Virus record (IMG/VR): IMGVR_UViG_3300032038_000071
Location: 1 to 64,000 of that record
Length of the DNA stretch: 64,000 nt
Reading direction: 5' to 3' (one strand)
From: a virus
Below the pieces are notes generated by a model, which searched no databases, had not been told where the DNA came from, and worked only from the letters and a program-made list of their open reading frames with translations. How positions within the stretch are numbered: the stretch's first letter is position 1; each line of letters begins with the position of its first letter. The translations under genes and the position numbers were made by a program. Shown in pieces: positions 10,816 to 40,720 of this stretch.

Positions 10816-11733
10816 TCACAATATGTTAGAAACTACATACTCCACTGCTATGGATTCTTCTATCTCTCCAGTTTTGATCCTACGTTCCGTTGACTGTATC
10901 AGCTTCATAATGTATATCAGATTGTTTATGCTATATACTCCACAGCACTCTTTAGCGTTCTTAATCTGCCAATACTGTAATCCGGTTGTCTTTTCTATGT
11001 CTTTACTTTCACAAGTCTGCACCTGTAATACTTGTTTAGCATTATTGAATAACACGGATAGAATAGCAAGATTAGATTCTCCTACTGCTTTACATTCCTC
11101 TAACAAGCTGTATGCAAGTCTGGCATGATTCTGCAACACTGCTTTTACAAAATCAAATATTGCATCTTTAGGTGGCTGATGTATTGTACCGTCTGCTAAT
11201 AGCTGTTCAAACGCTTTATTTGAATTACCTGTGTATCTCTTAATCTTATCTATTTCCAGTAAGCATCTGCTGTAACTTCCCTCGCACGCTTCTATCAGTC
11301 TATCACAGTTCTTGTCGGATAAGTCTATTTCTTTCTGTATGTATCGCTTCACCATTTCGCTTTTAAGCGCATTAAACTCAACAAATGACTGTTTATACGT
11401 CTTATAGAATTTAAGTCGCTTATCAACGCTTGTAAGCGTTAAAATGAGTATATCTGTTTTCAGTCTGTCTATTAATTCAGTCTGTAGTTTCTCATTACTG
11501 ATAAGTTCCTTATCGTCTAATACCACATACAGATAATTTACTTTCAGAAATGATATACTACCTAATTCTGTCAGAATATCCATAACGCTGTCTATATATC
11601 GCACTGTCAGATTTTTTACCTTTGCTATCTGCTTTATATAGATTTTCTGTATGGCATATTCTTCTCCTGTAAATACAAGAAAATTAGGAATATTATTATC
11701 TTTTATCAGACATTTCAATTCCTGTATTTCCAT
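10816..11733 (-). CDS. holA: DNA polymerase III delta subunit-like clamp-loader protein
   Basis: ORF track. Start set at the ATG at 11733 (TAATG overlap with the upstream stop). Overall HolA-like pattern (FLVFTGEEYAI...; C-terminal helical domain) and position next to the DnaX and delta-prime genes. Confidence 0.7.
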   Translation of the reverse strand: MEIQELKCLIKDNNIPNFLVFTGEEYAIQKIYIKQIAKVKNLTVRYIDSVMDILTELGSISFLKVNYLYVVLDDKELISNEKLQTELIDRLKTDILILTLTSVDKRLKFYKTYKQSFVEFNALKSEMVKRYIQKEIDLSDKNCDRLIEACEGSYSRCLLEIDKIKRYTGNSNKAFEQLLADGTIHQPPKDAIFDFVKAVLQNHARLAYSLLEECKAVGESNLAILSVLFNNAKQVLQVQTCESKDIEKTTGLQYWQIKNAKECCGVYSINNLIYIMKLIQSTERRIKTGEIEESIAVEYVVSNIL

Positions 11734-12554
11734 TACGACCACACCTTTCTGATTTTGATTATAAACGTATCAAGCAAAGCACTTTTATTTATTCCTGTCA
11801 CAGCCTGTAATACTGATAATGTGTCAGATGCTATTTTGATACCGTCTATCCAATAATCTCTATCATCTTTATCGGACAAACATTTCATCAGCTCTTTTGT
11901 GCATACACGCTCAAACGCTATAAGGAATAATCTTAAATCATATCCTTTTGCTTCTGGTTTGAGTGCTATCTTCTCTGTCAGTTTGAACACGTTAGATGTA
12001 CCAACATAAGCTATATTATCAACCACTTTTTCAACATAGCTGTAAAACTCATCTACTCCCATGCTATACAGTAAATCTATATCTCCCGGTGTGGCACATA
12101 TATCTGTCACAATATCTGCATCTACTGTTGGCTTACCATACTCTAATAATTCAGCTTTACTGTACGGTTGCATATAGAATGTGGTTGCCCTGCTTAATAT
12201 AGTTGGCAATACAGTTGATATATCATTTACAGTCATTATAAAGTAAGCATTTTTTGGTGGTTCTTCTACTATCTTCAATAGTGCGTTTTTTGCCTGTACT
12301 GACATATCATCTACATCAGCAAATACATAACACGTTGGTGAACCTGCTTTATACGCATCTATAATAACATTTCTCACTGTCTCAACTTTATTGTCCGGCT
12401 CAAAACAGGCAAACACATTCAGCTTTTGAAATATCTCACTACATAATGTTTTCTTTCCACTTCCTCGCTGACCTACTATTATAGCAAACTGTGGAAATAT
12501 CTGCTGTTTTATCAGACTATCTATTCTGCTGATTAACGCTTTCTGTCCTATCAT
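11733..12554 (-). CDS. holB: AAA+ clamp-loader subunit, delta-prime-like
   Basis: ORF track, 273 aa. Walker A GQRGSGKKT, LKIVEEPP box, SRAT sensor-like motif. Confidence 0.7.
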   Translation of the reverse strand: MIGQKALISRIDSLIKQQIFPQFAIIVGQRGSGKKTLCSEIFQKLNVFACFEPDNKVETVRNVIIDAYKAGSPTCYVFADVDDMSVQAKNALLKIVEEPPKNAYFIMTVNDISTVLPTILSRATTFYMQPYSKAELLEYGKPTVDADIVTDICATPGDIDLLYSMGVDEFYSYVEKVVDNIAYVGTSNVFKLTEKIALKPEAKGYDLRLFLIAFERVCTKELMKCLSDKDDRDYWIDGIKIASDTLSVLQAVTGINKSALLDTFIIKIRKVWS

Positions 12555-13582
12555 TTCATACCCTCCAGTAACATAGCTTCTATAAGATACTTTGGATTGC
12601 TGTCATACTTAACCGCTGAATTGATTTTTATAACTATATCTAACAAGTCACATATACTATCCCAACTATCAACACCGTCTAAATCATCAATAAATTCTTT
12701 GATTGTATCTATTTCCGGTATCTGTAGATACTTGAAGTCACCTATGATAAACCACTTCTTTATATCAAGTACAAAATTAAGATACTGACGGATAAACTGC
12801 TTCATATCAACACCTGTACTGTGTATAGTTTCTATGGATTTTATCAGCTTATCTGGTTCATTAAAGATATAAGCACTTGTTACCTCTATCATATTATCAT
12901 AGTTTGCTACACCTAATGCTTTCACAACATTTTCCATTGTCAATTCTGTATTGTATGATAAACATTTGTCCATCATAGTGATTGCATCTCTCATACCACC
13001 CTCTGCAAGTTTTGCTATATATTCAAGTGATGATAACGGAATAAAAGCATCTGTATGTCCTAACTCTGCCTCTGTGATATATGTAAGTCTATCAACAATA
13101 CCTTCCTGACTTATCTTATTGAAATCGTAGCGTTGAACTCTCGACAGTATTGTTTTTGGTATCTTCTGTGGGTCTGTAGTGCAAAATATAAAGATGGACT
13201 TTGCTGGTGGTTCTTCTATCAGTTTCAGAAATGCCTGCCACCCTGTATTACTGATTGCATGGCACTCATCTACAATGAATACCTTATATTCACTATCCAA
13301 ACTCTTTGTCTTTGCTTGCTGTATGATATTCCTTACATCATCAACACTTGAATTACTAGCGGCATCTAATTCTATTGGATTACCTACATGATTATTTATC
13401 TCATTTGCGAATATTCTAGCACAAGTTGTTTTACCTGTGCCTGCCCCTCCGCAAAATAGATAAGCGTGTTTCACTTCTCCACTTTCTAACTGCTGTTGTA
13501 AAATTACCTTTGTGCTGTTCTGCTCTACCACATCGTTAAATGTGGTAGGGCGATATTTTACAGCTAATGTCTGTTTTGCCAT
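12551..13582 (-). CDS. dnaX: DNA polymerase III gamma/tau-like clamp-loader ATPase
   Basis: ORF track, 343 aa. YRP..F..VVEQ, Walker A GGAGTGKTT, DECH Walker B, LKLIEEPP, SRVQ motifs. Confidence 0.85.
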   Translation of the reverse strand: MAKQTLAVKYRPTTFNDVVEQNSTKVILQQQLESGEVKHAYLFCGGAGTGKTTCARIFANEINNHVGNPIELDAASNSSVDDVRNIIQQAKTKSLDSEYKVFIVDECHAISNTGWQAFLKLIEEPPAKSIFIFCTTDPQKIPKTILSRVQRYDFNKISQEGIVDRLTYITEAELGHTDAFIPLSSLEYIAKLAEGGMRDAITMMDKCLSYNTELTMENVVKALGVANYDNMIEVTSAYIFNEPDKLIKSIETIHSTGVDMKQFIRQYLNFVLDIKKWFIIGDFKYLQIPEIDTIKEFIDDLDGVDSWDSICDLLDIVIKINSAVKYDSNPKYLIEAMLLEGMK

Positions 13583-16329: not shown

Positions 16330-16668
16330 TTATTTGTCCTCCTTGATTTTCTCAACCTGTTCATCAGTAAAGAACGCTGATGTTTTCATATACATATGTC
16401 CTGTGCCTATTGAATTTTCTTCATCTTCATCTGATTTCTTCTTGGCTGAATAAGTCCAGATAGGGAATTTAGCTACTGCTTTCTCTCCCTTTTTAACTTG
16501 ATAGCCTCTTGACTTCCACCCTTTGTAAGTGTGGATAGGCTGAATCTCATCTATCTCGATAAGTTCTCCGGACATATCTACTACTGTCATTTTCTTTCCG
16601 GTAAACTTTAAGATACCTTCTTTTTGAAGTTCTACTTGCTGTGTTAAAATAATCATCTGATTTGTCAT
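16330..16668 (-). CDS. protein with ArdC-N-like motif (possible ssDNA binding)
   Basis: ORF track. Start moved to MTNQMIIL (AAGGAGGAAATCAAT before the ATG). TYKGWKSRGYQVKKGEKA resembles the Tf.Q...G..V.KGEK motif. Weak call. Confidence 0.35.
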   Translation of the reverse strand: MTNQMIILTQQVELQKEGILKFTGKKMTVVDMSGELIEIDEIQPIHTYKGWKSRGYQVKKGEKAVAKFPIWTYSAKKKSDEDEENSIGTGHMYMKTSAFFTDEQVEKIKEDK

Positions 16669-16724
16669 ATTGATTTCCTCCTTGATTTGTTCTAATCTTG
16701 TAGTACACATTTGCTACTGTGTAT

Positions 16725-16770: not shown

Positions 16771-17202
16771 TTAGAATAAATTTAATTCCTCTAAAGTTTT
16801 GTAGTGTTTTGCATCATAGAATATAATTGTCTTTGGATAAGCACAACCTCTGCATACTCCTAAATGCTCATATGTATATCCGTGCGTTATTGTATAATGA
16901 ACATTCTTAAATCCTCTGATACCCCAACATCTGTCGATATATGCAAATATGGTTCTTTCAAAATTCTGTGCTGTTTCATAGTCTGTATAGTGTTCGCAAG
17001 TATCTTTAAGAGATTCGGCAAGTTTCTTTAATTCCTTTATGTACTTCTCCTTTGGCTTGATTGCAAATCTGTTCTTATTAACAGTCTTTACAAATTCAGC
17101 TTTACTTAAATTAGTTGCCATATACATCGGCTCAATTATGTCGTTGTAGTCTGCCCAACTTACTTCATATCCAGCAAGTGCTTCAAATTCATGTTTCATC
17201 AT
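16771..17202 (-). CDS. hypothetical protein (143 aa)
   Basis: ORF track. Start moved to MMKHEF (AAGGAGGACAATCACT before the ATG at 17202). Confidence 0.55.
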   Translation of the reverse strand: MMKHEFEALAGYEVSWADYNDIIEPMYMATNLSKAEFVKTVNKNRFAIKPKEKYIKELKKLAESLKDTCEHYTDYETAQNFERTIFAYIDRCWGIRGFKNVHYTITHGYTYEHLGVCRGCAYPKTIIFYDAKHYKTLEELNLF

Positions 17203-17254
17203 AGTGATTGTCCTCCTTGATTTAATCTTGTAGTACACATTAGCTACTGTCTAT

Positions 17255-23084: not shown

Positions 23085-23402
23085 TTATTCCTCCTCATCT
23101 AACATATAACAATAATCAACTTCCCACTCACCTCTGTACCAATCAAGTCGTATATAGTTATCTGTACCATCAAGATTAGAAGCGAAAATAGAACTACCAA
23201 GCTGTCCTGGAATAAACGCTTTATTGTCACTGCTTACCTTGTAACTTCTTGATTCAAGGCTGTACTCTTCCTTCCAATTACTTGCTTTGTAGACAACAAC
23301 TCCGTATATTGAGTTCTTATCAGTTCCCTTACAAGTAATATTGTTGTCCTCATTGTGCTTCCATAAAGCATCTGTCATTTGTGTCCATGTGATTTTCTTC
23401 AT
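23085..23402 (-). CDS. hypothetical protein (105 aa)
   Basis: ORF track. Start moved to MKKITW (CAGGAGGACAAATAT before the ATG at 23402). Confidence 0.55.
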   Translation of the reverse strand: MKKITWTQMTDALWKHNEDNNITCKGTDKNSIYGVVVYKASNWKEEYSLESRSYKVSSDNKAFIPGQLGSSIFASNLDGTDNYIRLDWYRGEWEVDYCYMLDEEE

Positions 23403-23453
23403 ATATTTGTCCTCCTGTGATATATTGTAGTACACATTAACTACTGTGCTTAT

Positions 23454-23482
23454 AATATATCACAGGCATAAAACACTGTCAA
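23454..23482 (-). promoter_or_regulatory. promoter (TTGACA-N17-TATATT) with conserved leader
   Basis: On the minus strand, -35 at 23482-23477 and -10 at 23459-23454. Confidence 0.6.
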
Positions 23483-23515: not shown

Positions 23516-23550
23516 AAGATAGACTTGGCTGTTTACACCAAGTCTATCTT
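23516..23550 (-). terminator. strong hairpin after the clamp gene (terminator-like)
   Basis: Perfect 13-bp stem AAGATAGACTTGG / CCAAGTCTATCTT, 9-nt loop. The T-tract is better on the plus than on the minus strand. Confidence 0.5.
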
Positions 23551-23556
23551 TATTAT

Positions 23557-24633
23557 TTATGCTACAAAAAGTGCTATAACCTGTGTAATGCTTCCGTCTA
23601 CAAACTTTATCAACTTATCATTTCCATAGTGTATCTCCACTACATCACCTGAATATGATTTAAGCTGTGCTGTAAGAAGTGCTATATTTATCCAACACTC
23701 AAAATCATCACTTTTATCTGTATCTTCTGTGTAACATATATCTTCACAGCTTTTACCCGACTTGTTAGATACTGTAAGCGCACCGCTACCGAAACTCAAC
23801 TTAACAGGTGCAAGCTGTCTTGTTACATCATTGGCAAACAATGTCATTCTATCTAACAGATTAAGAAGTTCAGATTTATTTATCTTGCAGATATATGGGA
23901 AGTCCATTGAAAGTAATTCACTTAATGTCTGCGCTGGATACTCATTTATATCCATATTATTCTTTGAATATACTATACAACCTGTTCCTTTGAAAATAAC
24001 ATACTCATCACTCATTACCATATCTATTGTCTCATCAGTCATATTATCAAGTAAATCCATACACTCTGCTGATATGAGCATATCATCTGGACAAAGCCTG
24101 TTGGCAATCTCTGCAACCATATGTCTATTTGTAGCAAGTATTGTATCTCCTGCATAATACTGTGTGATTACAGGCATTTCCATTGTAGTTGCAAGTGAAC
24201 CTTTAAGTGATTCAAGTATTGTCTTAATAAGACTTAAACTTACGGTTGCTGTTCTTTTAGTTACCTGAGTATCTTCTACAGGGTTTGGGTACTTAATGAG
24301 CGTACCATTCTCATCTAATGGAAGTTCCAGTGTATATACACCATTACCCCTAACTTCAAGATTGCCATTCTCAATCTTCAACTCTGTATACTCACTTGTC
24401 ATTTTAGATATAAGTTTGGCAAATTGGTCTGCATATACTGTAGCTGAAAAATCTTCACCATCTATCTGATTTGTAATATACAGATAGTTTGTAGCATCTG
24501 TGGTGATGATAGATAACTCACCATCTTTCATTTCAATACCCATAAGCTGTGTTATAGGTATTAACTTGTTATTACCAACACCACTTGTTGCTTTTGCTAC
24601 CATTCCCTTTAATACTTCTGTGTTTACTTTCAT
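23557..24633 (-). CDS. dnaN: DNA polymerase III beta-type sliding clamp
   Basis: ORF track, 358 aa. DnaN-like size and N-terminus (MKVNTEVLKGMVAKAT...IPITQLMGIEMKDGELSIITTDATNY). Confidence 0.75.
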   Translation of the reverse strand: MKVNTEVLKGMVAKATSGVGNNKLIPITQLMGIEMKDGELSIITTDATNYLYITNQIDGEDFSATVYADQFAKLISKMTSEYTELKIENGNLEVRGNGVYTLELPLDENGTLIKYPNPVEDTQVTKRTATVSLSLIKTILESLKGSLATTMEMPVITQYYAGDTILATNRHMVAEIANRLCPDDMLISAECMDLLDNMTDETIDMVMSDEYVIFKGTGCIVYSKNNMDINEYPAQTLSELLSMDFPYICKINKSELLNLLDRMTLFANDVTRQLAPVKLSFGSGALTVSNKSGKSCEDICYTEDTDKSDDFECWINIALLTAQLKSYSGDVVEIHYGNDKLIKFVDGSITQVIALFVA

Positions 24634-24646
24634 TTCTGTTCCTCCT

Positions 24647-25849
24647 TTAGAATAAATTACAGTTCATTATTTTATTTAATGTATGCTCACCAATAATAGT
24701 ATTTTCATCTCCTATATATTCATGTGAATAACATATTCGTGTTAATGATTGTATGCAGGATTCTCTTGTGCTATTACGACCTTTAGGTCTAATCATTCTT
24801 TGTATTTCTTCCTCTGATATATCTTCTATATTCTTAACACGTTTTAAATTACTCGAAGTTGGTCTCCACAATGAACTACGTTGTCTATATTCGCCTATTA
24901 TAGGATTAGCAGTTTTTGAAAAATATCTATATCCTTGAGAAATATACAATTCAGCCATATATTCAGATAATTTTCTTCCTATACCTATTCCTTGATAATC
25001 TGGTAAAACTACAGTTCTATGCTCACTTACACAAATACGCTTATCCGTTTTACTAAATCTTCCAGGCATAGCAATAACCGCACCGAACGCTATTGGTAAC
25101 ATATTGTAAGTAACCAAATAACAATCAGATGATGGGTTCAAATCAGCACTTAAATAGTGATAGGGCTTAAACATATACCAAATTTGCTTGGAACACTGAT
25201 GGACGTCAAGAACAATCTGCGGTCTTTGCCTGACACACCTCCCCACAGATAACTTTTTAGTATCTGTGTTATATATCCAATCTGGCTGTAAATATTCAAT
25301 TATATCATCGTGACAACTGGCAAATACAATATTTTTTAAATCGTGCTTTCTTATATATTTAGCTATACTAACACTACAACTTATGGCACACTCTCTATTA
25401 ACAACCGATGTAAACTCATCAATAACTGAATTACTTTTTAACTTTCTGGCTACATCACATCTAAATTTTTCACCTGTTGATAACACCTGATACGGTTTTA
25501 ACCACGTGATTATAGAATTAAATCCTACTGCACCTAATTTCTCACACGCATCATCAAAATTGTCAAAATGATTAGCCACACATTCATCACTTTTCCATTC
25601 ATTATCAGTATCATCACCAAATAACTTTAATAATGAAGATTTACCAGAACCACTTGAACCAACAATTAATCCAATATTAAACTCTTTTGGAAAATCTGGT
25701 ATATTTATTTCTGTAACGATTTCACCATCAAAATCAAAATCAAATGAATTTGAAATTCTATCAGTTATTTCATTTTGATTGATATGTGACTTTAAAGTTA
25801 TGACGTTTGATTTTTTTACAGTAATATCAAACAATTTTCCTTCGTTCAT
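24647..25849 (-). CDS. ABC-type ATPase fused to a GNAT acetyltransferase domain
   Basis: ORF track, 400 aa. Walker A GSSGSGKSS, signature-like LSTGEKFRCDVARKL, Walker B VIDEFTS, SCHDD. C-terminal GNAT motif A RTVVLPDYQGIGIGRKL. Confidence 0.65.
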   Translation of the reverse strand: MNEGKLFDITVKKSNVITLKSHINQNEITDRISNSFDFDFDGEIVTEINIPDFPKEFNIGLIVGSSGSGKSSLLKLFGDDTDNEWKSDECVANHFDNFDDACEKLGAVGFNSIITWLKPYQVLSTGEKFRCDVARKLKSNSVIDEFTSVVNRECAISCSVSIAKYIRKHDLKNIVFASCHDDIIEYLQPDWIYNTDTKKLSVGRCVRQRPQIVLDVHQCSKQIWYMFKPYHYLSADLNPSSDCYLVTYNMLPIAFGAVIAMPGRFSKTDKRICVSEHRTVVLPDYQGIGIGRKLSEYMAELYISQGYRYFSKTANPIIGEYRQRSSLWRPTSSNLKRVKNIEDISEEEIQRMIRPKGRNSTRESCIQSLTRICYSHEYIGDENTIIGEHTLNKIMNCNLF

Positions 25850-25861
25850 AAACTCTCTCCC

Positions 25862-28156
25862 TTATGATATTTCAATCTCATCACCGTACCATGCCTTTGT
25901 AATCTCTACATCGCACTTTATAGGCATTTCAAGTATCTTTTCAGCCGCCTTACTCATTGTTTCTGCTAATAGCTTTGAACATTCTTTAACATTCTCTTCA
26001 GGACACTCTGCTATAACTTCATCGTGTACTGGAATAAGAAGTCTGAAACCTAATTCTTTAAGTCTCTGGTTGTTATTCAACTCTATCATAGCTAACTTTG
26101 TAAGGTCTGCGGCACTTCCCTGTATTCTACTGTTTACACATTGTCTTGTAGCATCTGCAATCTTACCACCATTATCTACTATCCATATATCTTCTTCATT
26201 TGCCTTTTCAAAGATTTTTCTTTTCTCTCCGAATTTTGCTTTGTGAAGCTGTGTAAGATATTTTCTTATGATACGTTCTGGTATCTCTGTTTCTGCTTCA
26301 TCATCAAAGTCTAACACATCTACAGTAGGTGCAACACCATTCTTCCACTTAAACTCATACTCATCAAGCTGTAAATCTGGTAGTCTACGTTTTCTACCAC
26401 ATACAGTTGTTACATAACCTGTTTCATATGCCATATCAAGACTTTCATCTTCAAACTTCTTTATAGCAGGAAAACCTCTGAATACGCTGTCTTTTATAGC
26501 TTGTGCTTTTTCAGGTGTGCAATTAAGCTGTTCGGCTATACTGTTTACACCTCTGCCATAAAGCACTCCTAACAAGATACTCTTTGCTTGTGTTCTTCTT
26601 TCTTTACCAGCTTTATTTGTAGTACCATCAGCATTAAACTCCCGGCATTCTTCATAAGGTTTATTAAATGCCTTACTTGCAATTTCAGAATACAAATCCT
26701 TGCCCTGCATAAATGTGTTATACATCTGACTATCACCATCTTTTCTACAAAGAGCGGCAAGACATTTTGGTTCTTGCTGTGAGAAGTCACTCGACATTAA
26801 TACATATCCGTCTGATGCAACGAACATCTTACGAATATCTTTGTTATGACTTGGAATGTTCTGTAGATTAGGGTCACTACTTGACATTCTACCTGTATTA
26901 GCACCATATTGATTGAAGCTACAATGTATTCTACCATCCTTCGGATTTACACACTCCGGTAACTTATCAATATATGTGCTTATCAATTTCTCCACTTCTC
27001 TATATTCTAGTATTGAATTAGCAAGAGGGCTGTCCATCTTTCTCAGAATATCTACACCTGTACCTCTTGGTGATTTACTGTCAATCACATCATATCCAAG
27101 TATATCATAGAATAAAATTGCAAGCTGTGTAGGACTTGCTATATTGATAGGGTTATCTAACTTACAATCAGTGTGCTTTAATCTGTATGTTGTAATCTTA
27201 TCATTATAAGCGTTTAAATGCTCATAGAACGCATTTAGTTTGTCTTTTAGTATATTATTATATCTTTCAGATAAAACTTGATTATAAGTCAAATCAAAGA
27301 GTATTCCGTTATCTTCCATATCACAACATACTTTTACACAAGGCATTTCTATATTCTTAAATACCCAATATAGCTTTCTCATATCTTCCCTATCGCTGTC
27401 TGCTCTGAGATACTTTCGCTGATAATCATATAATTCATATGTAATCTCTGGGTCATGTGCGGCATACAGAACTGCTGTCTGTAAAGGAACAAGAGTAAAT
27501 GGTATTCCTTTAAACAACTCTTCAAATGTAAACGCATCTTCTTCGCCATTAAGCACATATTTCTGATGTAACTTTTTAAGTGCATTTGTTGGTTCATTTT
27601 CATTAAGCAATCTCTGTGCTAAATAACAATCCCAAGTACAGTATATGTCTTTAAGTCCAACTTGATTGCGTAAAAATCTTATATCAAACTTTGCGTTGAA
27701 CATGATTATATCTGTATTAGATTTAATCATTCGGTCAAACTCAGCTTTGATTATATCTACACTCAACTGGTCTGGCACAACCATATTTGTTATAAAACTC
27801 ACATGATTTATTGGTATGTATGCTCCAGGCATATTCGATGTATAGATACATATTCCAGCTATCTCATCTTGTAACGGGTCAAGCCCTGTTGTTTCTGTAT
27901 CTATACTTATAACTCCATTATCAATGCACTTGTTAAGATATTTTACCAACGACATTGTATCTTGAATAAGTATGTATTTATCCTTAAACTTTCCAAGATG
28001 TGTTTCAACCAATTTCTGTGCCTGAGTTATTCTATCAAGTAAGCTGTTCCCACCTCTTACAGTAGGAACAGCTTTTCTTGTGGAATTAGACTGCTTTGCT
28101 AACTTCATATCGTTAGTTTTACTATTTGCTCTTGTAGGAATTTCAAATAGTGCCAT
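25862..28156 (-). CDS. polA: family A DNA polymerase with 3-5 exonuclease domain
   Basis: ORF track, 764 aa. Exo I ISIDTETTGLDP, motif A SDFSQQEPK, motif B RRTQAKSILLGVLYG, motif C IPVHDEVI. Confidence 0.95.
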   Translation of the reverse strand: MALFEIPTRANSKTNDMKLAKQSNSTRKAVPTVRGGNSLLDRITQAQKLVETHLGKFKDKYILIQDTMSLVKYLNKCIDNGVISIDTETTGLDPLQDEIAGICIYTSNMPGAYIPINHVSFITNMVVPDQLSVDIIKAEFDRMIKSNTDIIMFNAKFDIRFLRNQVGLKDIYCTWDCYLAQRLLNENEPTNALKKLHQKYVLNGEEDAFTFEELFKGIPFTLVPLQTAVLYAAHDPEITYELYDYQRKYLRADSDREDMRKLYWVFKNIEMPCVKVCCDMEDNGILFDLTYNQVLSERYNNILKDKLNAFYEHLNAYNDKITTYRLKHTDCKLDNPINIASPTQLAILFYDILGYDVIDSKSPRGTGVDILRKMDSPLANSILEYREVEKLISTYIDKLPECVNPKDGRIHCSFNQYGANTGRMSSSDPNLQNIPSHNKDIRKMFVASDGYVLMSSDFSQQEPKCLAALCRKDGDSQMYNTFMQGKDLYSEIASKAFNKPYEECREFNADGTTNKAGKERRTQAKSILLGVLYGRGVNSIAEQLNCTPEKAQAIKDSVFRGFPAIKKFEDESLDMAYETGYVTTVCGRKRRLPDLQLDEYEFKWKNGVAPTVDVLDFDDEAETEIPERIIRKYLTQLHKAKFGEKRKIFEKANEEDIWIVDNGGKIADATRQCVNSRIQGSAADLTKLAMIELNNNQRLKELGFRLLIPVHDEVIAECPEENVKECSKLLAETMSKAAEKILEMPIKCDVEITKAWYGDEIEIS

Positions 28157-28170
28157 CTAATTATCTCCTT

Positions 28171-28854
28171 TTAAAATCTTCTGTCGTTATCGTTTGCAGG
28201 TGTCCTTCTGCCAGGTCTACGTCTTGGCATTTCATCTTCTGCTGATTCTTCATTCCTTGCAGTACGTCTTACCGGTGCTTCACTATCTGTTGGTGGAAAA
28301 TATCCTTCTGATAAATAGAATTCCATATCTTCTGCTGACTTATCGAGAATAACACTGCCAAGTACCTCTGGAATATCAAAATCCTCTATCTGTGTATCGT
28401 CAGCCGGATCCTCAGTTCTGTAAATCTCATAAGTAGTCTTTGTGTCTTTTGGCTTACCGTGTCTCTCTATCTCAAATATCTGTGATACAATAGGTGCTTT
28501 ATTGTATCTTGCACAAATACCAGAAATTTTACTAAAGAATGTCTTACCACGTTCCCAAAGCTGTACTTTATCCTCATCAATATTGTATACAGGGATAAAC
28601 AGCTTTGCTACCTGAAACTTCTTTGCTTTACAGAATGGACAATCATCAACTGGCTGGTTGTATTCCCTTATACAGTTGACATACCTCTTCTTTCCATCAA
28701 TCTCTACTTCATGCACAGCATATCCTTCAATATCATCGGCTGTGTTGTAGAGAAATCTGACAGAAGCTACATCCATATCATTCTGTAATGAGAAGAATCC
28801 TGCTCCGCCCTTTCCACCATACTTGTCAACAGTGTCTGCATTAAATCGTGCCAT
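28171..28854 (-). CDS. putative ssDNA-binding protein (Zn-knuckle type)
   Basis: ORF track, 227 aa. Directly downstream of polA. H...C....CPFC cluster, disordered acidic/basic C-terminal tail ending in RRF. Weak call. Confidence 0.4.
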   Translation of the reverse strand: MARFNADTVDKYGGKGGAGFFSLQNDMDVASVRFLYNTADDIEGYAVHEVEIDGKKRYVNCIREYNQPVDDCPFCKAKKFQVAKLFIPVYNIDEDKVQLWERGKTFFSKISGICARYNKAPIVSQIFEIERHGKPKDTKTTYEIYRTEDPADDTQIEDFDIPEVLGSVILDKSAEDMEFYLSEGYFPPTDSEAPVRRTARNEESAEDEMPRRRPGRRTPANDNDRRF

Positions 28855-29587: not shown

Positions 29588-29616
29588 ATTGTACTACACA
29601 TTATATTATATGTCAA
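29588..29616 (-). promoter_or_regulatory. promoter (TTGACA-N17-TACAAT) with AATGTGTAG box
   Basis: On the minus strand, -35 at 29616-29611 and -10 at 29593-29588. Confidence 0.65.
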
Positions 29617-29625
29617 CAAAAATAT

Positions 29626-30933
29626 TTATAAATTTTTTATACTCTTTTCAAGTGCATCTACTAAATCTAAATCATCAAACCACAATGCACGTACCTGCTT
29701 ATCTTTTCTTACTGGATTTACTATACTGCCACCTAAAAGATAATCAACGTGGTCTACAAGATTAGATTTCAGATTAAGGACATACTCATTAGGATAATAA
29801 TTTTCCATATATATTCTGAATATGGTATCATCGTACTTCTTTTCTTTTATCCACTTTTCATACTGCGGGTCATGCCATACCCACTTGTTAAACCACTCTA
29901 CATATGACTTTACTATCTTTGTTGGAATGTAGATACATGGAAATGAATACCACATCTTTAAGCCATTTGAATCACCCGGAACCCATTTCTTCATTTCATC
30001 ATAATAAGAAGCAAAACCACAAACTGTAAAATCTTTACTTAACTCCTTTGTTCGTTCTGCAAAATCTCTACATATTATTACATCATCTTGTAAATGCCAT
30101 ATTCCGTCTACGCTCATCTTTGATGCTTGCGTAAAGCTGTCTACAGAACTCTTTAAACAGCCCTGTTTTTGCCTATCAACATACACTATGATATTCTCAT
30201 TCTTTATCCCCTGTTCTAACATAGACGGTATCAGATAATCATTAACATACCATTCTCTCTGTAAGCAGGTGTGTATCATATATAATGACTTTATTGTCTT
30301 TACAAAAGGTTCTATCTTCTCTACGTCTTTTGGTTCATCTATATCGCAAGTATAATCATTTATAGCTGTATAGTTTGTATAATCAATCTTGTTTATCTCT
30401 GTACCTTTAATTACTTGCCATAATTCCCATGCTATAGGCTCTCTTCTAAACTTTTTCTGTTCGTGTAAAGTCTGTATTTCTTTAAGACTATTCTGGAAAT
30501 GTTGTAAATCTACAACTTTAAAGGCAAAAGGTTCTGCATAAGGCTTACTATAATTCTTTGCAAACGGTGGCGCTGATGCAAAGAACTCTATATCATCTGT
30601 TTCTGTTTTCACTATTGTTTGTATAGCTTCTTCCGAAAACACTACATCACCAAAGATATAGCATACAGGTTCTTTAGTTTTATAAAATCCGTTATACCAC
30701 CCACCTGTTGATACACCCGGTCTTATTACAGTCCAGTTATTATCAGACTTTAATACGGGAACACCAAGTCCTTCAAATCTGCTGTCATTACTGCTGATAG
30801 CTATATCTTCTACTCCGGCTTCTCTTAACAGTCTTATTGTTCTGACTACAATAGGTTCATTGTTTATTCGAGTAAGTTGTCTTGGTTCTTTCCATATCTG
30901 ATAATTACCGCCACACATTATAATATATTTCAT
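29626..30933 (-). CDS. two-domain protein: N-terminal nucleotidyltransferase-like domain plus an unidentified C-terminal (possible glycosyl- or phospho-transferase) domain
   Basis: ORF track, 435 aa. N-terminus MKYIIMCGG....PRQLTRINNEPIVVRTIRLL resembles NTP_transf_3 / sugar-phosphate nucleotidyltransferases. The C-terminal half has WHLQDDVIICRDF (DxD-like). Confidence 0.5.
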   Translation of the reverse strand: MKYIIMCGGNYQIWKEPRQLTRINNEPIVVRTIRLLREAGVEDIAISSNDSRFEGLGVPVLKSDNNWTVIRPGVSTGGWYNGFYKTKEPVCYIFGDVVFSEEAIQTIVKTETDDIEFFASAPPFAKNYSKPYAEPFAFKVVDLQHFQNSLKEIQTLHEQKKFRREPIAWELWQVIKGTEINKIDYTNYTAINDYTCDIDEPKDVEKIEPFVKTIKSLYMIHTCLQREWYVNDYLIPSMLEQGIKNENIIVYVDRQKQGCLKSSVDSFTQASKMSVDGIWHLQDDVIICRDFAERTKELSKDFTVCGFASYYDEMKKWVPGDSNGLKMWYSFPCIYIPTKIVKSYVEWFNKWVWHDPQYEKWIKEKKYDDTIFRIYMENYYPNEYVLNLKSNLVDHVDYLLGGSIVNPVRKDKQVRALWFDDLDLVDALEKSIKNL

Positions 30934-37996: not shown

Positions 37997-40720
37997 CTAA
38001 CTTAATAAGAAGTCAAGTACCTCTGACTTACTCATATCAACCTTACCATCCACAAGAGCATCTGACATAGCACCTTTCTTCTGTACAAGTTCATGGATTC
38101 TTTCGTCTATTGTATCCTTACACATAAGGTTGTAGATTGTAACATTATGCTTCTGTCCTACTCTGTGGCATCTATCTGTTGCTTGGTCGTATAATGCTCT
38201 GTTCCAAGGTTCGTCAAGAAATATCTCAACTGTTCCTGCGGTGAGAGTGAGACCTGTACCCATAGCGCCAATTGTACCTATAATGTATTTACACTCAGGA
38301 TTATTCTGAAAATGATTTACATTTACCTGTCTATCAGCATCGTTTGTCTGACCAGTAATGACAACACCTTTATACTTCTTTGCAAGTCTGGCTCTAATAA
38401 CATCTGTCATCTGCGTCCAGTTAGAAAAGATAACAACTTTCTTTCCATTCTCTATTGCTTCTTCAACAAGTTCTTCCATTCTATCAAGCTTTGCACTTTC
38501 CTGTATCTTGCTTGAAAGAATACCTGTATAACCTGTAGCTTGTCTCATTCTGATTAATTCTGCAAGTGGATTAGGTGCTGTCTTTATGTTATCAATATTA
38601 CTCTGAATATCTGCTGTGACCTCTTTATAGATAACAGCTTGCTTTGGTGTCATATCAACGTATTCATCTATGTATGTCTTTTCCGGTAAGTCTAATACAT
38701 CATCTTTAAGTCTACGTAACATTATGTCATTAAGTCTTTCCTGTAACTCGTCAAGATTCTTATAGCCGACTACTTCATATCCGCCATAGCCACCCATTAC
38801 ACAATAATGATTTTTAAATCTGTAAAAGGCATTCTTTTCATAACCAAGCCATTTAAGAATTATGTATAAGTCCATAGGCTGATTCATAAGTGGTGTACCT
38901 GTCATAGCTATACGACATTCAGATTGTAATTTAAGAATACCTTTGCCCTGCTGACTTGATGGGTTCTTACACTTATGTATCTCATCAATAGCTATAATAC
39001 CTATCTCACCCGATTTGCATTTATTTGCGATTTCAGACACGATTTTTTCATCACGCATAGTTTCTACATTCGTTATAATAAAATACGCTCCAAGTGCTTC
39101 CAAATTGCAAATATCAGTATATTTATCTGCATTAGACCCTATAACAATTTTATCGTTCTTAATTCTCTGTCCAAGAATGTATGCTTCCTCATCTGAATGT
39201 GTATGAATTTCATTAACCCAGTTCCATTTAAGACCATTAACTCCGCATACTATAAGACAATGCTTGTATCCTTTCTGTAATTTCTTTGCTACTGCTATAT
39301 CAATGACTTGTTTTGTGTTATGAGTTACTACAAAATGCTCGGCTAAATACAGATGGTCATTACTATCAACTGTAATACACTTTGCGTCTGCATTATCAAT
39401 CTTTTCAATAGCAATTATATTTCTTCTTGTCTTGAAATGTCGGTCTTTCAATAATGATTTTTTACGAGTAAGAGTACAATACAGTTGAGGTCTATCAAAT
39501 TTAATAGTCAGATTGTAACTTGTTCCCGTAATCTTTCCATCATAACCACACTCACTTTCAGAGTAACTTACAATACCACCTAAACTTTCAACTAAAAATC
39601 TTACATCTTCACATAACTGTTTTGATACAGTTGAATAAGTTAATAAATTATCAGATGTTGCATAGCCATCCGTATCAATAAGTCCTTGTAATACTTCTGT
39701 TCTAACTGCGATTGAATTGTACTTGTATATATCTGGAATGAATTTTGTGTGAGAGTTTCTTCCATGTAAATCTAAATCAGTAAGTGCTTTTCTTATTATA
39801 TTAGTTTTGCCTTGTATATCAGTACCTTTAATATAATATTCAATATCTCCCATACTTGGTGCTGAATACAACTCATAGCCTTTAGGTAATCTTGAATTGA
39901 TATTATCTACCATTTCACTATCAATCGTAGTAAATCTTATTGTATGGGTAGTAATTCCACCATCACCTAACAATGCACCTAATACATAAGGCTCTATTGG
40001 CACTTCTTGATATTCAAATTGAACAGGTTTACATCTATCTATGTAATATTTGTAACTTCCAGAACCTTCGCTGAATAGATTATCTTTTCGTACATTTCCG
40101 AATTGGTCTTTCTTAGTAAACCATTCTGTATCAACTACTTTAGTTCCATGTTGGTCATGTATCTGCCATAAATGGTCTTTACAACAATCAATACTTACTC
40201 CATCAGAAAATGTAATACGATACATTTCAACATTCTTATGATAGTATGTGGCAGTTACTTTAGTTGGGCTACCGTCTTTACCAAATACATAATCTCCAAC
40301 TTCAATATCTTTCATTTCCTTGTACCCTGTTGGAGTATATATTTTAGTATTTAATGCAAGTGCTTTTCCAAGACCCTGTTCATCACCTAACAGCCATCTG
40401 TCGTACTTCAATCCAAAATTAAACCCATCAATCTGATGCTCAAAAGGTTTTGTTTTGAAGTTGAAGTTAGCTGGTGTTTCAGCTTTCTTATCTTCAAATG
40501 ATATGTACTTGCCTGAAATATCAAAATCAAAGTCCTGTAAGTTATCTATAAGATACTGTATCTTTTTTACAGGTATTTCCCACTCTTTTGTATCTTTGTT
40601 CCAATATCTTGTGGGCAGTTCTCTTACTGTATCAACCACTTTCTGGTTGTAGTCAAATGATACAAAAGCTGAATAATCATCATCTATATTTTTAGAGTTT
40701 TTAATCTGTATCGTTATCAT
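37997..40720 (-). CDS. SNF2-family helicase interrupted by an intein in the P-loop
   Basis: ORF track, 907 aa. DEQGLGK | intein | TKQVIDIAV restores the GLGKT Walker A. Also AIDEIH (DExH), MTGTPL, DEPWN, QATDRCHRVGQ. Confidence 0.9.
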   Translation of the reverse strand: MITIQIKNSKNIDDDYSAFVSFDYNQKVVDTVRELPTRYWNKDTKEWEIPVKKIQYLIDNLQDFDFDISGKYISFEDKKAETPANFNFKTKPFEHQIDGFNFGLKYDRWLLGDEQGLGKALALNTKIYTPTGYKEMKDIEVGDYVFGKDGSPTKVTATYYHKNVEMYRITFSDGVSIDCCKDHLWQIHDQHGTKVVDTEWFTKKDQFGNVRKDNLFSEGSGSYKYYIDRCKPVQFEYQEVPIEPYVLGALLGDGGITTHTIRFTTIDSEMVDNINSRLPKGYELYSAPSMGDIEYYIKGTDIQGKTNIIRKALTDLDLHGRNSHTKFIPDIYKYNSIAVRTEVLQGLIDTDGYATSDNLLTYSTVSKQLCEDVRFLVESLGGIVSYSESECGYDGKITGTSYNLTIKFDRPQLYCTLTRKKSLLKDRHFKTRRNIIAIEKIDNADAKCITVDSNDHLYLAEHFVVTHNTKQVIDIAVAKKLQKGYKHCLIVCGVNGLKWNWVNEIHTHSDEEAYILGQRIKNDKIVIGSNADKYTDICNLEALGAYFIITNVETMRDEKIVSEIANKCKSGEIGIIAIDEIHKCKNPSSQQGKGILKLQSECRIAMTGTPLMNQPMDLYIILKWLGYEKNAFYRFKNHYCVMGGYGGYEVVGYKNLDELQERLNDIMLRRLKDDVLDLPEKTYIDEYVDMTPKQAVIYKEVTADIQSNIDNIKTAPNPLAELIRMRQATGYTGILSSKIQESAKLDRMEELVEEAIENGKKVVIFSNWTQMTDVIRARLAKKYKGVVITGQTNDADRQVNVNHFQNNPECKYIIGTIGAMGTGLTLTAGTVEIFLDEPWNRALYDQATDRCHRVGQKHNVTIYNLMCKDTIDERIHELVQKKGAMSDALVDGKVDMSKSEVLDFLLS
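39317..40363 (-). mobile_element. 349-aa intein with LAGLIDADG homing endonuclease; class-3-type (Ala1, Trp-Cys-Thr signature)
   Basis: Residues 120-468 of the helicase. Block A ALALNTKIYTPTG (Ala in place of Cys/Ser), block B CKDHLW, LAGLIDADG motifs YVLGALLGDGG and LQGLIDTDGY, block F AKCITVD, block G VVTHN followed by Thr+1. Confidence 0.8.

Follow-up and report, generated by a model that had tools for sequence, protein, structure and literature searches.

Enzymes of the GNAT fold that acylate the exocyclic amines of nucleic acid bases have two precedents, Mom and TmcA (PMC13219725). Mom of phage Mu acts on adenine in double-stranded DNA after its replication and counters restriction (PMC13219725); it lacks an ATPase, and its donor is Gly-tRNA instead of acyl-CoA. 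N-acyl groups on the N6 of adenine have been reported to be chemically unstable (PMC13219725). TmcA/NAT10 combines an NTPase with a GNAT domain and acetylates an exocyclic base amine in RNA from acetyl-CoA, giving N4-acetylcytidine. The ATPase of TmcA is helicase-like and is flanked by a DUF1726 and a tRNA-binding domain.

The closest described system joins the GNAT domain to an ATPase of the ABC type. In the section of PMC7824862 (2021) that cites Iyer et al., a "GNAT coupled with an ABC ATPase" is predicted to acylate a DNA nucleobase (Iyer, Zhang, Burroughs and Aravind, NAR 2013). The assignment given there is a computational prediction with Tenacibaculum phage pT24 as the exemplar (PMC7824862). 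The preliminary description of the locus studied here, which knew of no described role for such a fusion, was out of date on this point. In the literature, we found no experimental study or biochemical data on this family (PHROG 11143). COG2401, the class that the preliminary description names as "ABC-type ATPase fused to acetyltransferase", would by this name fit the architecture.

Proteins that bind to or encircle DNA are also relevant here. On double-stranded DNA, a DNA T-dioxygenase of a phage is activated by the ParB that belongs to it, and these dioxygenases fall into ParB-dependent and ParB-independent subclasses (PMC13229309). For the beta clamp, the binding consensus is QL[S/D]LF, QxxLF or xxxLF (PMC12309361). 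The clamp clients PolC (QLSLF-COOH) and T4 gp43 (...SLDFLFG) carry their terminal peptide after a disordered linker. To our knowledge, no acyltransferase is a sliding-clamp client.

The window analysed here is a stretch of 64,000 nucleotides of viral DNA (IMG/VR record IMGVR_UViG_3300032038_000071, positions 1 to 64,000). It encodes an ABC-GNAT protein within a unit of replication genes that has the following features.

29588..29616, minus strand: sigma-70-like promoter TTGACA-17-TACAAT, a consensus match at 11/12 positions and the best in the region
28171..28854, minus strand: SSB gene, upstream member of the same unit (phrog_14578, E = 4.9e-43)
25862..28156, minus strand: family A DNA polymerase (PolA), 764 aa, directly upstream of the ABC-GNAT gene (phrog_17, E = 8.5e-140)
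28145..28156, minus strand: N-terminus of PolA, MALF, aligned to MEQLSLFGD of the relative L169
24647..25849, minus strand: ABC-GNAT gene, 400 aa plus stop codon, ATG start (ORF list and translation)
23557..24633, minus strand: phage beta sliding clamp, 358 aa, directly downstream (full-length match to phrog_947 "DNA polymerase processivity factor", E = 5e-27)
23516..23550, minus strand: perfect 14-bp hairpin 3' of the clamp gene, likely the terminator of the unit (MFE -21.8 kcal/mol, z = -5.2)

The gaps on both sides of the ABC-GNAT gene are 12-13 nt. The product of the clamp gene also matched DNA polymerase III beta among the PDB sequences (4tr6, 3t0p, 8xla). Elsewhere in the window, positions 10816-13582 hold clamp-loader genes. 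None of 200 shuffled sequences folded as well as the hairpin, which a simple terminator scan did not call because its U-tract is weak. The position between polA and the beta-clamp gene, in a unit running from this promoter to this hairpin, had been proposed in the preliminary description and was borne out by the PHROG and PDB matches, the promoter consensus and the stability of the hairpin. A protein identical to the window's ABC-GNAT is encoded on a metagenomic contig of 66,849 bp (P0001), and no near-identical phage genome was present in INPHARED. Within the 64-kb window we found no other recognisable base-modification gene and neither a PanD nor a CoA-transferase gene.

The protein was divided into two domains and a tail.

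25226..25849, minus strand: minimal ABC nucleotide-binding domain (NBD), aa 1-208 (conserved motifs and Foldseek)
25634-25660, minus strand: Walker A GSSGSGKSS, aa 64-72 (translation)
25469-25483, minus strand: ABC signature LSTGE, aa 123-127 (translation)
25415-25426, minus strand: Walker B VIDE with the catalytic Glu, aa 142-145 (translation)
25304-25318, minus strand: H-loop SCHDD, aa 178-182 (translation)
24695..25225, minus strand: GNAT acyltransferase domain, aa 209-385 (Pfam PF00583 and domain model)
24968-25018, minus strand: GNAT CoA-binding motif A RTVVLPDYQGIGIGRKL, aa 278-294 (translation)
24734-24865, minus strand: conserved basic insertion between beta6 and beta7, aa 329-372 (charge composition)
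24650..24694, minus strand: C-terminal tail, aa 386-400, disordered and closing with ...MNCNLF-COOH, putative clamp-binding peptide (low pLDDT and tail comparison)

The N-terminal half is a member of the ABC ATPase superfamily, as both the motifs and the NBD fold are present. Conservation was followed in an alignment of 55 relatives with 48-87% identity, where G64, S66, G67, S68, K70, L123, S124, G126, D144, E145 and H180 were invariant or nearly so. The Pfam model ABC_tran matched only the surroundings of the P-loop and scored below its cut-off. The AlphaFold2 model of the full protein had a pLDDT of 86.4 and a pTM of 0.80, and its N-terminal half was matched by Foldseek to the transporter-type NBDs of Wzt, MalK, MacB, FtsE, LolD and MJ0796 (E 3e-7 to 1e-4); the type is thus that of transporters and not of SMC or MutS. 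With LolD, MJ0796, Wzt and FtsE it has in common the fold, both Walker motifs, the signature and the H-loop, whereas the fused GNAT domain, the truncated helical subdomain and the missing Q-loop glutamine set the window protein apart. No invariant glutamine occurs between Walker A and the signature among the 55 relatives, and in the alignment this stretch is about 47 residues shorter than in LolD. That the ATPase lacks a membrane partner, as noted earlier, was confirmed: its neighbours are PolA and the clamp, and no permease gene lies beside the ABC-GNAT gene in any of about 170 loci.

The C-terminal half is a GNAT-superfamily member with an intact CoA motif A. Acetyltransf_1 (PF00583) scored 23.8 bits against a gathering cut-off of 20.7. 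In the 55-sequence alignment H277, R278, G287 and G291 were invariant or nearly so, Q286 and G289 were kept in at least 90%, and the YQGIGIG stretch was conserved. All the motifs that the preliminary description had read in the single 400-aa ORF, from Walker A to GNAT motif A, are therefore present in the translation and conserved, and both folds were recovered. In the full-length model, Foldseek matched the C-terminal half to small GNATs. When the GNAT domain was modelled separately, AlphaFold2 gave a pLDDT of 88.4 and Foldseek matched many GNAT structures. The nearest were generic GNATs and protein N-acetyltransferases, namely Naa50/60, RimI, GCN5/PCAF and AtaT. The basic insertion at aa 329-372 contains 22.7% K+R against 10.0% D+E, with a net charge of +5.3. 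For the whole fusion, phmmer and profile searches of the PDB sequences gave P-loop matches only and no solved structure; Foldseek gave no full-length match, and the sole full-length structural match in the viral library was the homologue of Leptospira phage LE4.

Mom and TmcA were both considered as relatives. Mom shares the GNAT fold, but it appeared only at rank 35 in the viral structure library BFVD (E = 6.6e-4) and outside the PDB top 50; with this weak likeness and with the CoA-binding motif conserved in the window protein, a close kinship was not supported. TmcA was not in the Foldseek top 50 of the GNAT domain. Membership of the TmcA family was rejected, since the ATPase of the window protein is an ABC NBD and Pfam and Foldseek detected no flanking TmcA domains. 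The parallel to TmcA drawn in the preliminary description thus stands as a functional analogy, an NTPase working with a GNAT, here with DNA as the proposed substrate instead of RNA. It does not extend to homology beyond the GNAT fold because the ATPases are of different types.

The relation to the predicted family was much closer. Residues 17-383 of the window protein aligned to positions 3-353 of the 357 positions of the phrog_11143 profile (E = 5e-107), and a tblastn match to Tenacibaculum phage pT24 covered 94% of the query at 37% identity (E = 1e-55). On these alignments, the window protein is a full-length member of the predicted ABC-GNAT DNA-modification family with the same order of the two domains, and it takes over the same predicted function, the acylation of a DNA base. 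The window's clade differs from the system as predicted in the lack of ParB, the position in a PolA-clamp operon and the clamp-motif-like tail. Counted as clusters at 50% identity, the family comprises 4030 at E<=1e-3, 2362 at E<=1e-10 and 859 at E<=1e-30, and so at least 859. Its members occur in tailed phages of bacteria and archaea, in prophages and even in protists. Cultured phages with such a gene include Rhodococcus phage Jace, Aeromonas phage PX29, Tenacibaculum phage pT24, Leptospira phages LE3/LE4, Nonlabens phage P12024S, Thomasclavelia phages TR-TP1/2 and Burkholderia phage phiE255. Besides the single-NBD form, there are tandem NBD-NBD-GNAT relatives, ParB-NBD-GNAT fusions (P0214 with 12 cluster members, P0224 and P0243) and a fusion of NBD-NBD-GNAT to a Strawberry-notch helicase (P0218). 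Because tandem relatives exist, the single-NBD phage form is predicted to act as an ATP-sandwich homodimer.

In prophages the ABC-GNAT gene comes after a gene for a ParB N-terminal domain or is joined to it. In 42 of the 63 cellular loci, the gene immediately upstream, on the same strand, codes for a ParB_N protein; the phages 315.4, Pmp13, Jace and LE3/LE4 have this arrangement too. With a Type II methyltransferase model, this partner matched the part that corresponds to ParB (E = 1e-12). The arrangement resembles that of the ParB-dependent 5mYOX T-dioxygenases and the ParB-methyltransferase fusions, where a short protein with the ParB N-terminal domain is adjacent or fused and where ParB-linked and ParB-less subclasses occur side by side (PMC13229309); the chemistry of the dioxygenases is unlike the acyl transfer with an ATPase predicted here. 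When the 64-kb window was searched with hmmsearch, no ParB-like ORF was found anywhere, which places the window member in the ParB-less class. In prophage 315.4 an ASCH gene lies two genes downstream (Pfam E = 1e-5). As general evidence the ASCH link was dropped, since a neighbour cluster in actinobacteria was marginal (E = 0.056) and the window has none.

The ParB-less relatives of other lineages also lie within replication modules, and this setting recurs with other types of polymerase and primase. Among the 77 viral ABC-GNAT loci, a replication or recombination neighbour was recognisable in only 33. The clamp gene is directly downstream in the 4 genomes of the window's clade that were examined (4/4) and in none of about 165 other loci. 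The survey of the polA/dnaN linkage that had been suggested earlier therefore came out positive throughout the window's clade. The order of ABC-GNAT followed by the clamp is kept in L005, L169 and L170, though their clamps are only 30-37% identical.

The C-terminal tail of the ABC-GNAT proteins was then compared with the clamp-binding consensus. In the AlphaFold2 model, residues 388-400 had a pLDDT below 50. The terminal Leu-Phe-COOH was invariant in 49 distinct tails, and the linker before it was hypervariable. An LF-COOH terminus was found in 48 of 112 close relatives, and 34 of the 112 had Q..[LIM]F among their final 12 residues, where the background rate is 0.55% per window. The tails of relatives include QQNLF, EQLSLF and GQMSLFD, and temperate phages without a nearby clamp gene have the canonical tails EQITLF and QMTIFD. 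In the T4-like phage PX29, the homologue ends with ...SGLDFMFGI. Many relatives thus match the QxxLF of PolC or the LDF[LM]FG type of gp43. The window tail NCNLF-COOH retains xxxLF only, matching positions 4 and 5 of the consensus and missing the canonical Gln. The N-termini of PolA co-vary with the tails: MEQLSLFGD goes with QQNLF in L169 and MALF with NCNLF in the window.

Since the window tail has no canonical Gln, the case for its binding to the clamp is built on homology and on the co-variation with PolA. We infer from both that the xxLF-COOH tail may dock on the phage's own beta clamp, alongside a PolA with a matching N-terminal motif. Across the ParB-less lineages it is the motif that implies a clamp partner, and its type appears to track that of the clamp: QLSLF-like with a host clamp, LDFMFG in the T4-like phage and, in the window's clade with its own adjacent clamp gene, xxLF-COOH. 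Among the cellular loci the clamp motif was found in 0 of 42 that are linked to ParB and in 4 of 21 without ParB (one-sided p about 0.01), a weak test of exclusivity because the four are mutually related. Other lineages, such as lineage B, have neither the tail nor ParB. Judged from such comparisons, ABC-GNAT enzymes across the family seem to be paired with a DNA-encircling protein, either ParB, adjacent or fused, or a clamp implied by the motif.

Some of the ParB-linked operons contain genes that may supply an acyl donor. The order ParB-ABC-GNAT-PanD-CoA_transf_3 was found in Jace and in one Planctomycete locus (PanD PF02261, E = 2e-33), and PanD and/or a CoA-transferase lies near the ABC-GNAT gene in four further loci. 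These matches were obtained with tblastn, as ORF calls were wrong in some high-GC loci. PanD is rare in phages and was found in 15 of 50,697 records. The aspartate decarboxylase PanD together with a CoA-transferase suggests beta-alanyl-CoA as the donor in these operons.

Taken together, we regard it as about an even chance that the ABC-GNAT protein is an ATP-driven acyltransferase that is recruited to DNA by the clamp and modifies the replicating phage DNA. The gene product would be soluble and acyl-CoA-dependent. Its tail would dock it on the clamp beside PolA, and the enzyme would therefore travel with the replisome. Binding and hydrolysis of ATP by the NBD dimer would clamp or distort the DNA and present a base, and the GNAT domain with its basic insertion would move the acyl group from acyl-CoA to the exocyclic amine of that base. 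For the window phage acetyl-CoA is the probable donor, and for the lineages with PanD and the CoA-transferase it is probably beta-alanyl-CoA. The phage would likely benefit from the protection of its DNA against host nucleases. This proposal agrees with the prediction of Iyer and Aravind in the form in which PMC7824862 cites it. The acylation of DNA bases had been predicted there; the ParB linkage and fusions, the clamp-type tails, the matching N-termini of PolA and the operons with PanD and the CoA-transferase are the evidence brought here. The likeness of the GNAT fold to protein acetyltransferases and not to Mom or TmcA, and the transporter type of the NBD, speak against a DNA base as the substrate, as do the lack of another recognisable base-modification gene in the window and the reported instability of N-acyl groups on adenine N6.

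This likeness is an argument for a protein acetyltransferase to which the clamp or ParB would be no more than a landing pad. It would acetylate DNA-bound or clamp-bound proteins, for example nucleoid proteins or replisome components of the host or the phage, to redirect or protect replication. Naa50/60, RimI and GCN5/PCAF are the nearest structural neighbours of the GNAT half, clamp-binding tails would place the enzyme beside other clamp clients, and there is a precedent in phage GNATs that acetylate host proteins, such as Rac of the phiKMV-like phages (cited in PMC7824862). However, GNAT fold similarity predicts the substrate poorly, the ParB domains found in DNA methyltransferases are similar to the ParB partner, and a dedicated supply by PanD and a CoA-transferase in several operons suggests a bulk chemistry other than acetylation and not regulation. 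In the window's clade a takeover of the host is unlikely because the partner clamp is phage-encoded. We consider acetylation of proteins a live rival, although an unlikely one. Three roles had been offered in the preliminary description; DNA modification is now the best supported of them, next to this rival, and the acetylation of aminoacyl-tRNAs is disfavoured. The latter belongs to a group of readings in which the substrate is a tRNA or a small molecule, with a toxin-like shut-off of the host, detoxification of an antibiotic or microcin, or acetylation of polyamines as the outcome. AtaT-type tRNA-acetylating toxins and PaiA were among the structural matches, and weak PDB sequence matches to diamine acetyltransferase were obtained. 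These readings are very improbable in our view, as they give no account of why ParB is fused or adjacent, of the tails of clamp type, of the fusion to a helicase or of the ABC dimer, and an antitoxin-like partner is absent.

ParB is known to recruit SMC, an ABC-type ATPase. By this parallel, the ABC-GNAT protein could be a non-catalytic accessory that handles DNA with ParB in loading, compaction or packaging, with the GNAT half as a sensor of CoA or a metabolite, and in prophages (27 of the 63 loci) the ParB and ABC-GNAT pair is followed directly downstream by the genes for terminase and portal. The catalytic and CoA-binding motifs of the GNAT half are invariant, however, the transporter-type NBD comes without coiled coils or other SMC-like features, and genes for donor supply would make no sense for a sensor, which makes such an accessory improbable. 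In many database records these genes carry names of ABC transporter subunits that bind ATP ("hemin importer", "iron siderophore transporter"), and transporter NBDs were in fact the best Foldseek matches. With the fused GNAT domain, the ParB partner and the replication setting, and with no adjoining permease, no Q-loop Gln and a helical membrane-coupling subdomain that is about 47 residues short, this assignment is effectively refuted by context; we give it hardly any weight, and database names of this kind ("hemin importer", "iron siderophore ABC transporter") are almost certainly wrong. A known anti-phage defence system was rejected too, since the PADLOC matches were partial and confined to the P-loop or ABC part (mad3, mad8 and PDC-M62A, E 6e-5 or weaker).

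Acylation of DNA bases by ABC-GNATs can be put more broadly, and this wider proposal is tentative. ABC-GNATs might be replisome-travelling DNA acyltransferases that are delivered by interchangeable rings: a C-terminal peptide would link them to the beta clamp or gp45, and a partner or fusion to ParB. They would install an undescribed base modification, an N-acetyl base in the window's clade and a beta-alanine-derived one where PanD and a CoA-transferase are present, perhaps rearranging like the glycyl-dA of Mom. If true, this would be the first acyl-CoA-dependent acylation of DNA bases and the first bacterial or phage DNA-modifying enzyme known as a sliding-clamp client. If the prediction is right, DNA modification would gain a new chemical class from a large family, the acyl-CoA-dependent N-acylation of bases, and the way in which such an enzyme gets to its substrate would become visible, with the tether (ParB, beta clamp or gp45) apparently swapped and the catalytic core kept. 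Eukaryotes have a DNA methyltransferase that is tethered to PCNA, and the ABC-GNATs would be its equivalent in bacteria and viruses. Three features, namely the clamp motifs, the fusions to ParB and the operons with PanD and the CoA-transferase, make the old prediction approachable by experiments in cultured phages, and they point to beta-alanyl-CoA as a specific donor.

Two cultured phages relate the ABC-GNAT gene to mom. In the Mu-like phage phiE255 it lies 3' of the tail-fibre genes, the position that mom has in Mu. A formyltransferase gene stands beside it, and phiE255 is the only locus where this was seen. The T4-like phage PX29 has a Mom-like gene in addition to its ABC-GNAT gene.

As the preliminary description had it, a single ORF of 400 aa codes for an ABC nucleotide-binding domain (NBD) fused to a GNAT domain, and all of its proposed motifs were found in the translation:

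24647-25849, minus strand: ABC-GNAT gene, 400-aa ORF
aa 64-72 of the ABC-GNAT protein: Walker A, GSSGSGKSS
aa 123-127: signature, LSTGE
aa 142-145: Walker B, VIDE
aa 178-182: H-loop, SCHDD
aa 278-294: GNAT motif A, RTVVLPDYQGIGIGRKL

The conservation of the catalytic positions was analysed in an alignment of 55 relatives with 48-87% identity. The motifs are intact and near-invariant, with K70, S124, G126, D144, E145, H180, H277, R278, Q286, G287, G289 and G291 invariant or nearly so. In Pfam, the C-terminal half scored over the gathering cut-off as Acetyltransf_1, and the ABC_tran match was confined to the surroundings of the P-loop. An AlphaFold2 model of the full protein (pLDDT 86.4, pTM 0.80) had a pLDDT below 50 only at residues 1-4 and 388-400. 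Both folds were then seen half by half with Foldseek, which matched the N-terminal half to the transporter-type NBDs Wzt, MalK, MacB, FtsE, LolD and MJ0796 and the C-terminal half to small GNATs; no solved structure among the matches spanned both halves. PADLOC gave no meaningful defence-system match.

In ABC transporters, the region from Walker A to the signature motif links the NBD functionally to the membrane domain. Here, the NBD is shorter than LolD by about 47 residues in this region, no conserved Q-loop glutamine was present in the alignment of the 55 relatives, and a permease gene adjoined ABC-GNAT in none of the loci examined, in agreement with the missing membrane partner of the preliminary description. 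For these three reasons, an ABC transporter subunit was ruled out.

The gene lies between PolA and a beta-clamp homologue in a unit with all genes on the minus strand and intergenic gaps of 12-13 nt. The promoter and the hairpin that had been cited for this unit were both recovered:

29616-29588, minus strand: promoter-like site, the best of the region
28171-28854, minus strand: SSB
25862-28156, minus strand: family A polymerase (PolA), upstream of ABC-GNAT
23557-24633, minus strand: beta-clamp homologue, with a full-length PHROG match and PDB sequence matches to DNA polymerase III beta
23516-23550, minus strand: hairpin after the clamp gene, perfect 14-bp stem, z = -5.2
23454-23482, minus strand: second strong promoter-like site, TTGACA-17-TATATT with extended -10 TG, 11/12 positions
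10816-13582, minus strand, outside this unit: three-subunit clamp loader (gamma/tau, delta', delta)

The second promoter-like site directly follows the hairpin and suggests a new unit that would begin with a 116-aa ORF at 23085-23435. The early region encodes a SNF2 helicase, DnaD-like and DnaC-like proteins, DnaB, DnaG, RecA, a Cas4-like exonuclease, a Holliday-junction resolvase and the clamp-loader subunits, and is predicted to specify a very complete replisome. The window ORFs examined included no gene for a methyltransferase, a hydroxymethylase or any other base-modification enzyme that could be recognised.

In close relatives, the last conserved GNAT motif, CYSHEYIG, is followed by a hypervariable linker (median 21 aa) and a short terminal motif. 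The pattern Q..[LIM]F was present in the last 12 residues of 34 of the 112 tails, e.g. EQLSLF-COOH, GQMSLFD, QMTLFD and DKQISLF, against a background of 0.55% per 12-aa window in protein bodies. Another 48 tails have LF-COOH as their end and belong essentially to the clade of the window itself. The Leu-Phe pair did not vary among 49 distinct tails, and the linker positions had 3-3.6 bits of entropy. The bacterial clamp-binding consensus is QL[S/D]LF, more generally QxxLF; PolC ends in QLSLF, and of the motif only xxxLF is kept by DnaE3 polymerases (PMC12309361).

In each of the four genomes examined from the window's clade, the enzyme gene is directly followed by a beta-clamp gene; about 165 other loci contained none. 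The linkage to the clamp gene, for which a neighbourhood survey had been proposed, is conserved within the clade. In the wider survey, a replication or recombination neighbour was recognisable within five genes in only 33 of 77 viral loci, and TerS in 10. The enzymes of the clade members L005, L169 and L170 share 58-63% identity with the window enzyme, whereas the adjacent clamps share 30-37%, indicating that the enzyme is under stronger constraint.

The PolA proteins carry similar motifs at their N-termini:

28145-28156, minus strand: MALF in the window
L169, 3698-3724: MEQLSLFGD
Lineage B (ParB-less relatives): MSKQIGMFKP

The PolA motif co-varies with the enzyme tail: where PolA starts with MEQLSLFGD (L169), the enzyme ends in QQNLF-COOH, and where it starts with MALF, the enzyme ends in NCNLF-COOH (window) or SFSLF-COOH (L005). 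The N-terminal motifs suggest that these phage family A polymerases would be beta-clamp clients. Where temperate phages lack a clamp gene in the vicinity, the enzyme has the canonical tails EQITLF-COOH and TQMTIFD, and its gene adjoins a primase or replication-organizer gene; these phages presumably use the host replisome. The homologue of the T4-like Aeromonas phage PX29 ends in ...AKSGLDFMFGI. T4 gp43 ends in ...EEKASLDFLFG, which we take to be the gp45-clamp-binding tail of T4-family polymerases. The candidate terminal motifs of clamp-binding type match the lineage, and the window enzyme has a probable clamp tether. An LF-COOH end was found in only two of about 100 window ORFs, ABC-GNAT and the following ORF, whose product may be another clamp client:

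16771-17238, minus strand: 155-aa ORF ending in ...EELNLF, adjoining RecA, with a weak match to phrog_15742

Along its whole length, the window protein matched PHROG 11143, annotated 'unknown function', at E = 5e-107. Homologues were found in 61 deposited phage genomes, every one with less than 60% identity to the window protein. The carriers include T4-like Aeromonas and Vibrio phages, the Tenacibaculum jumbo phage pT24, Leptospira LE3/LE4, Gordonia and Rhodococcus phages, the Mu-like Burkholderia phage phiE255 and streptococcal and lactococcal prophages; the database labels are 'hypothetical', 'hemin importer' or 'iron siderophore ABC transporter'. An exhaustive profile search gave 4030 clusters (50% identity) at E<=1e-3 and 859 at E<=1e-30. 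When the NBD and GNAT halves were mapped with an HMM each, four architectures were seen:

NBD-GNAT: 340-430 aa
Tandem NBD-NBD-GNAT: 680-1300 aa, some from protist transcriptomes
ParB-NBD-GNAT fusions: P0214 (12 cluster members), P0224 and P0243
NBD-NBD-GNAT with a Strawberry-notch helicase: P0218, a single case

The tandem relatives imply that the single-NBD phage enzyme would act as an ATP-sandwich dimer. Among the protist transcriptomes with tandem modules are those of foraminifera (P0160, P0204). P0218 has 2734 aa, comes from a Pelagodinium beii transcriptome and a JGI contig, and its helicase part matches AAA_34, Helicase_C_4 and SBNO. These protist sequences may stem from the eukaryote itself, a giant virus or contamination.

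The partners of the enzyme were analysed in 80 bacterial and archaeal loci; the target ORF was called in 63 of them. The gene directly before it codes, on the same strand, for a protein of about 200 aa with a ParB N-terminal domain in 42 of the 63, and in 27 terminase and portal genes follow downstream. ParB and the enzyme gene follow each other with overlapping stop and start codons in prophage 315.4, Pasteurella Pmp13, Rhodococcus Jace and Leptospira LE3/LE4. The adjacent gene order and the single-chain fusions show ParB and the enzyme as predicted partners that work together. Against a Type II methyltransferase model, the ParB partner aligned with the part that represents ParB (E = 1e-12). 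In a 2026 study, a phage T-dioxygenase was activated on dsDNA by its cognate ParB, which has no DNA-binding domain; these dioxygenases have ParB-dependent and ParB-independent subclasses side by side (PMC13229309). Since no ParB-like ORF was found in the 64-kb window, its enzyme belongs to the ParB-less class. None of the 42 ParB-linked cellular genes had a clamp motif, their products stopping directly behind the GNAT core, whereas 4 of the 21 ParB-less genes did (one-sided p ~0.01, the four positives being mutually related). Lineage B, with the order AEP primase, ABC-GNAT, UvrD helicase and PolA, and some other lineages have neither tail nor ParB.

In Jace, the gene order is exonuclease, ParB (gp85), ABC-GNAT (gp86), aspartate 1-decarboxylase PanD (gp87; PF02261, E = 2e-33) and a 227-aa family III CoA-transferase homologue (gp88; E = 2e-8). 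The order from ParB to the CoA-transferase recurs in a Planctomycete locus. In Alsobacter, Hyphomicrobium, Streptomyces and one viral contig, the enzyme gene has PanD, the CoA-transferase or both no more than about 4 kb away on its own strand; PanD is otherwise rare in phage records (15 of 50,697). PanD produces beta-alanine, which the CoA-transferase could turn into beta-alanyl-CoA, and for this reason the GNAT of these lineages would move a beta-alanyl rather than an acetyl group. Neither gene was found in the window.

We infer that the enzyme would be recruited to DNA by whichever DNA-encircling protein the phage supplies, that the NBD dimer would spend ATP to engage or distort the DNA, and that the GNAT would then acylate a DNA base. 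Mom on dsDNA and TmcA on tRNA are precedents for GNATs that acylate exocyclic base amines (PMC13219725). However, both were absent from the top 50 structural matches of the GNAT half, and Mom appeared at rank 35 in a viral structure library. Between its strands beta6 and beta7, the GNAT domain has a conserved insertion of basic character (net charge +5.3), which is compatible with nucleic-acid binding. A separate model of the GNAT half (pLDDT 88.4) was nearest to generic GNATs and the protein N-acetyltransferases Naa50/60, RimI, GCN5/PCAF and AtaT, and because of these neighbours the acetylation of DNA- or clamp-bound proteins has to be considered. We hold it to be less likely, as resemblance of GNAT folds says little about the substrate, and operons with donor genes of their own, PanD and the CoA-transferase, would suit an abundant substrate such as DNA more than the regulatory acetylation of proteins. 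About an even chance is given to the modification of DNA by an enzyme tethered to a clamp, and other readings share the remaining probability.

The preliminary description knew of no described role for such a fusion. However, in the part of the literature that treats ABC ATPase-coupled GNATs, the family and one of the proposed roles, DNA modification, are already present as a computational prediction, with Tenacibaculum phage pT24 as the example (Iyer et al., PMC7824862, citing 2013 work). The pT24 protein and the window protein are homologous over their full length. The source cited for the prediction is Iyer et al. 2013 (NAR 41:7635). Our literature searches found no experimental work on the family. 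As far as checked, the ParB-less variant inside a replisome operon with a probable clamp tether is undescribed so far. The domain fusion itself is no surprise to a specialist; the novelty lies in clamp tethers that would be exchanged between lineages and in an operon for a beta-alanine donor, both testable starting points towards what may be a new class of DNA modification.

Several members of the family deviate in structure or setting. The homologues P0164, P0166, P0194, P0212 and P0266 share a C-terminal extension of 160-208 aa with an HNH-like end, HLDGNTLNNLRSNL, which may be a fused homing endonuclease. The two halves are annotated as separate ORFs in prophage 315.4 (L001, 4932-6001), TR-TP1 (L174, 3447-4843) and pT24. 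In Streptococcus pyogenes prophages, the halves are separated by about 120 nt and the GNAT is just a short fragment, so this copy may be decayed or frameshifted. In TR-TP1, two full genes adjoin a Pol III alpha-type polymerase. In phiE255 (L002, 4947-6679), ABC-GNAT is gp29 and follows the tail-fibre genes, which we take to be the place of mom in Mu; a 54-aa fragment similar to ParB lies before it and a PurN-like formyltransferase (PF00551, E = 3e-21) after it. PX29 (L167, 36066-36950) has an annotated Mom-like gene besides ABC-GNAT gp085, and therefore both GNAT-type systems coexist in one genome.

Three further genes of the window were noted:

16330-16710, minus strand: small ArdC-N-like protein, possibly with an anti-restriction or ssDNA-binding role
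29626-30933, minus strand: 435-aa ORF directly upstream of the replisome promoter
37997-40720, minus strand: SNF2-family helicase, 907 aa, interrupted by an intein-like insert

The 435-aa ORF has an N-terminal MobA-like NTP-transferase domain, below the gathering score, and a C-terminal half that received no domain assignment (phrog_33187). The SNF2 Pfam match spans aa 95-713, yet covers only 262 profile positions, and within this span Pfam matched Hint (aa 134-170, weak), Hom_end (328-407) and LAGLIDADG_3 (340-390).
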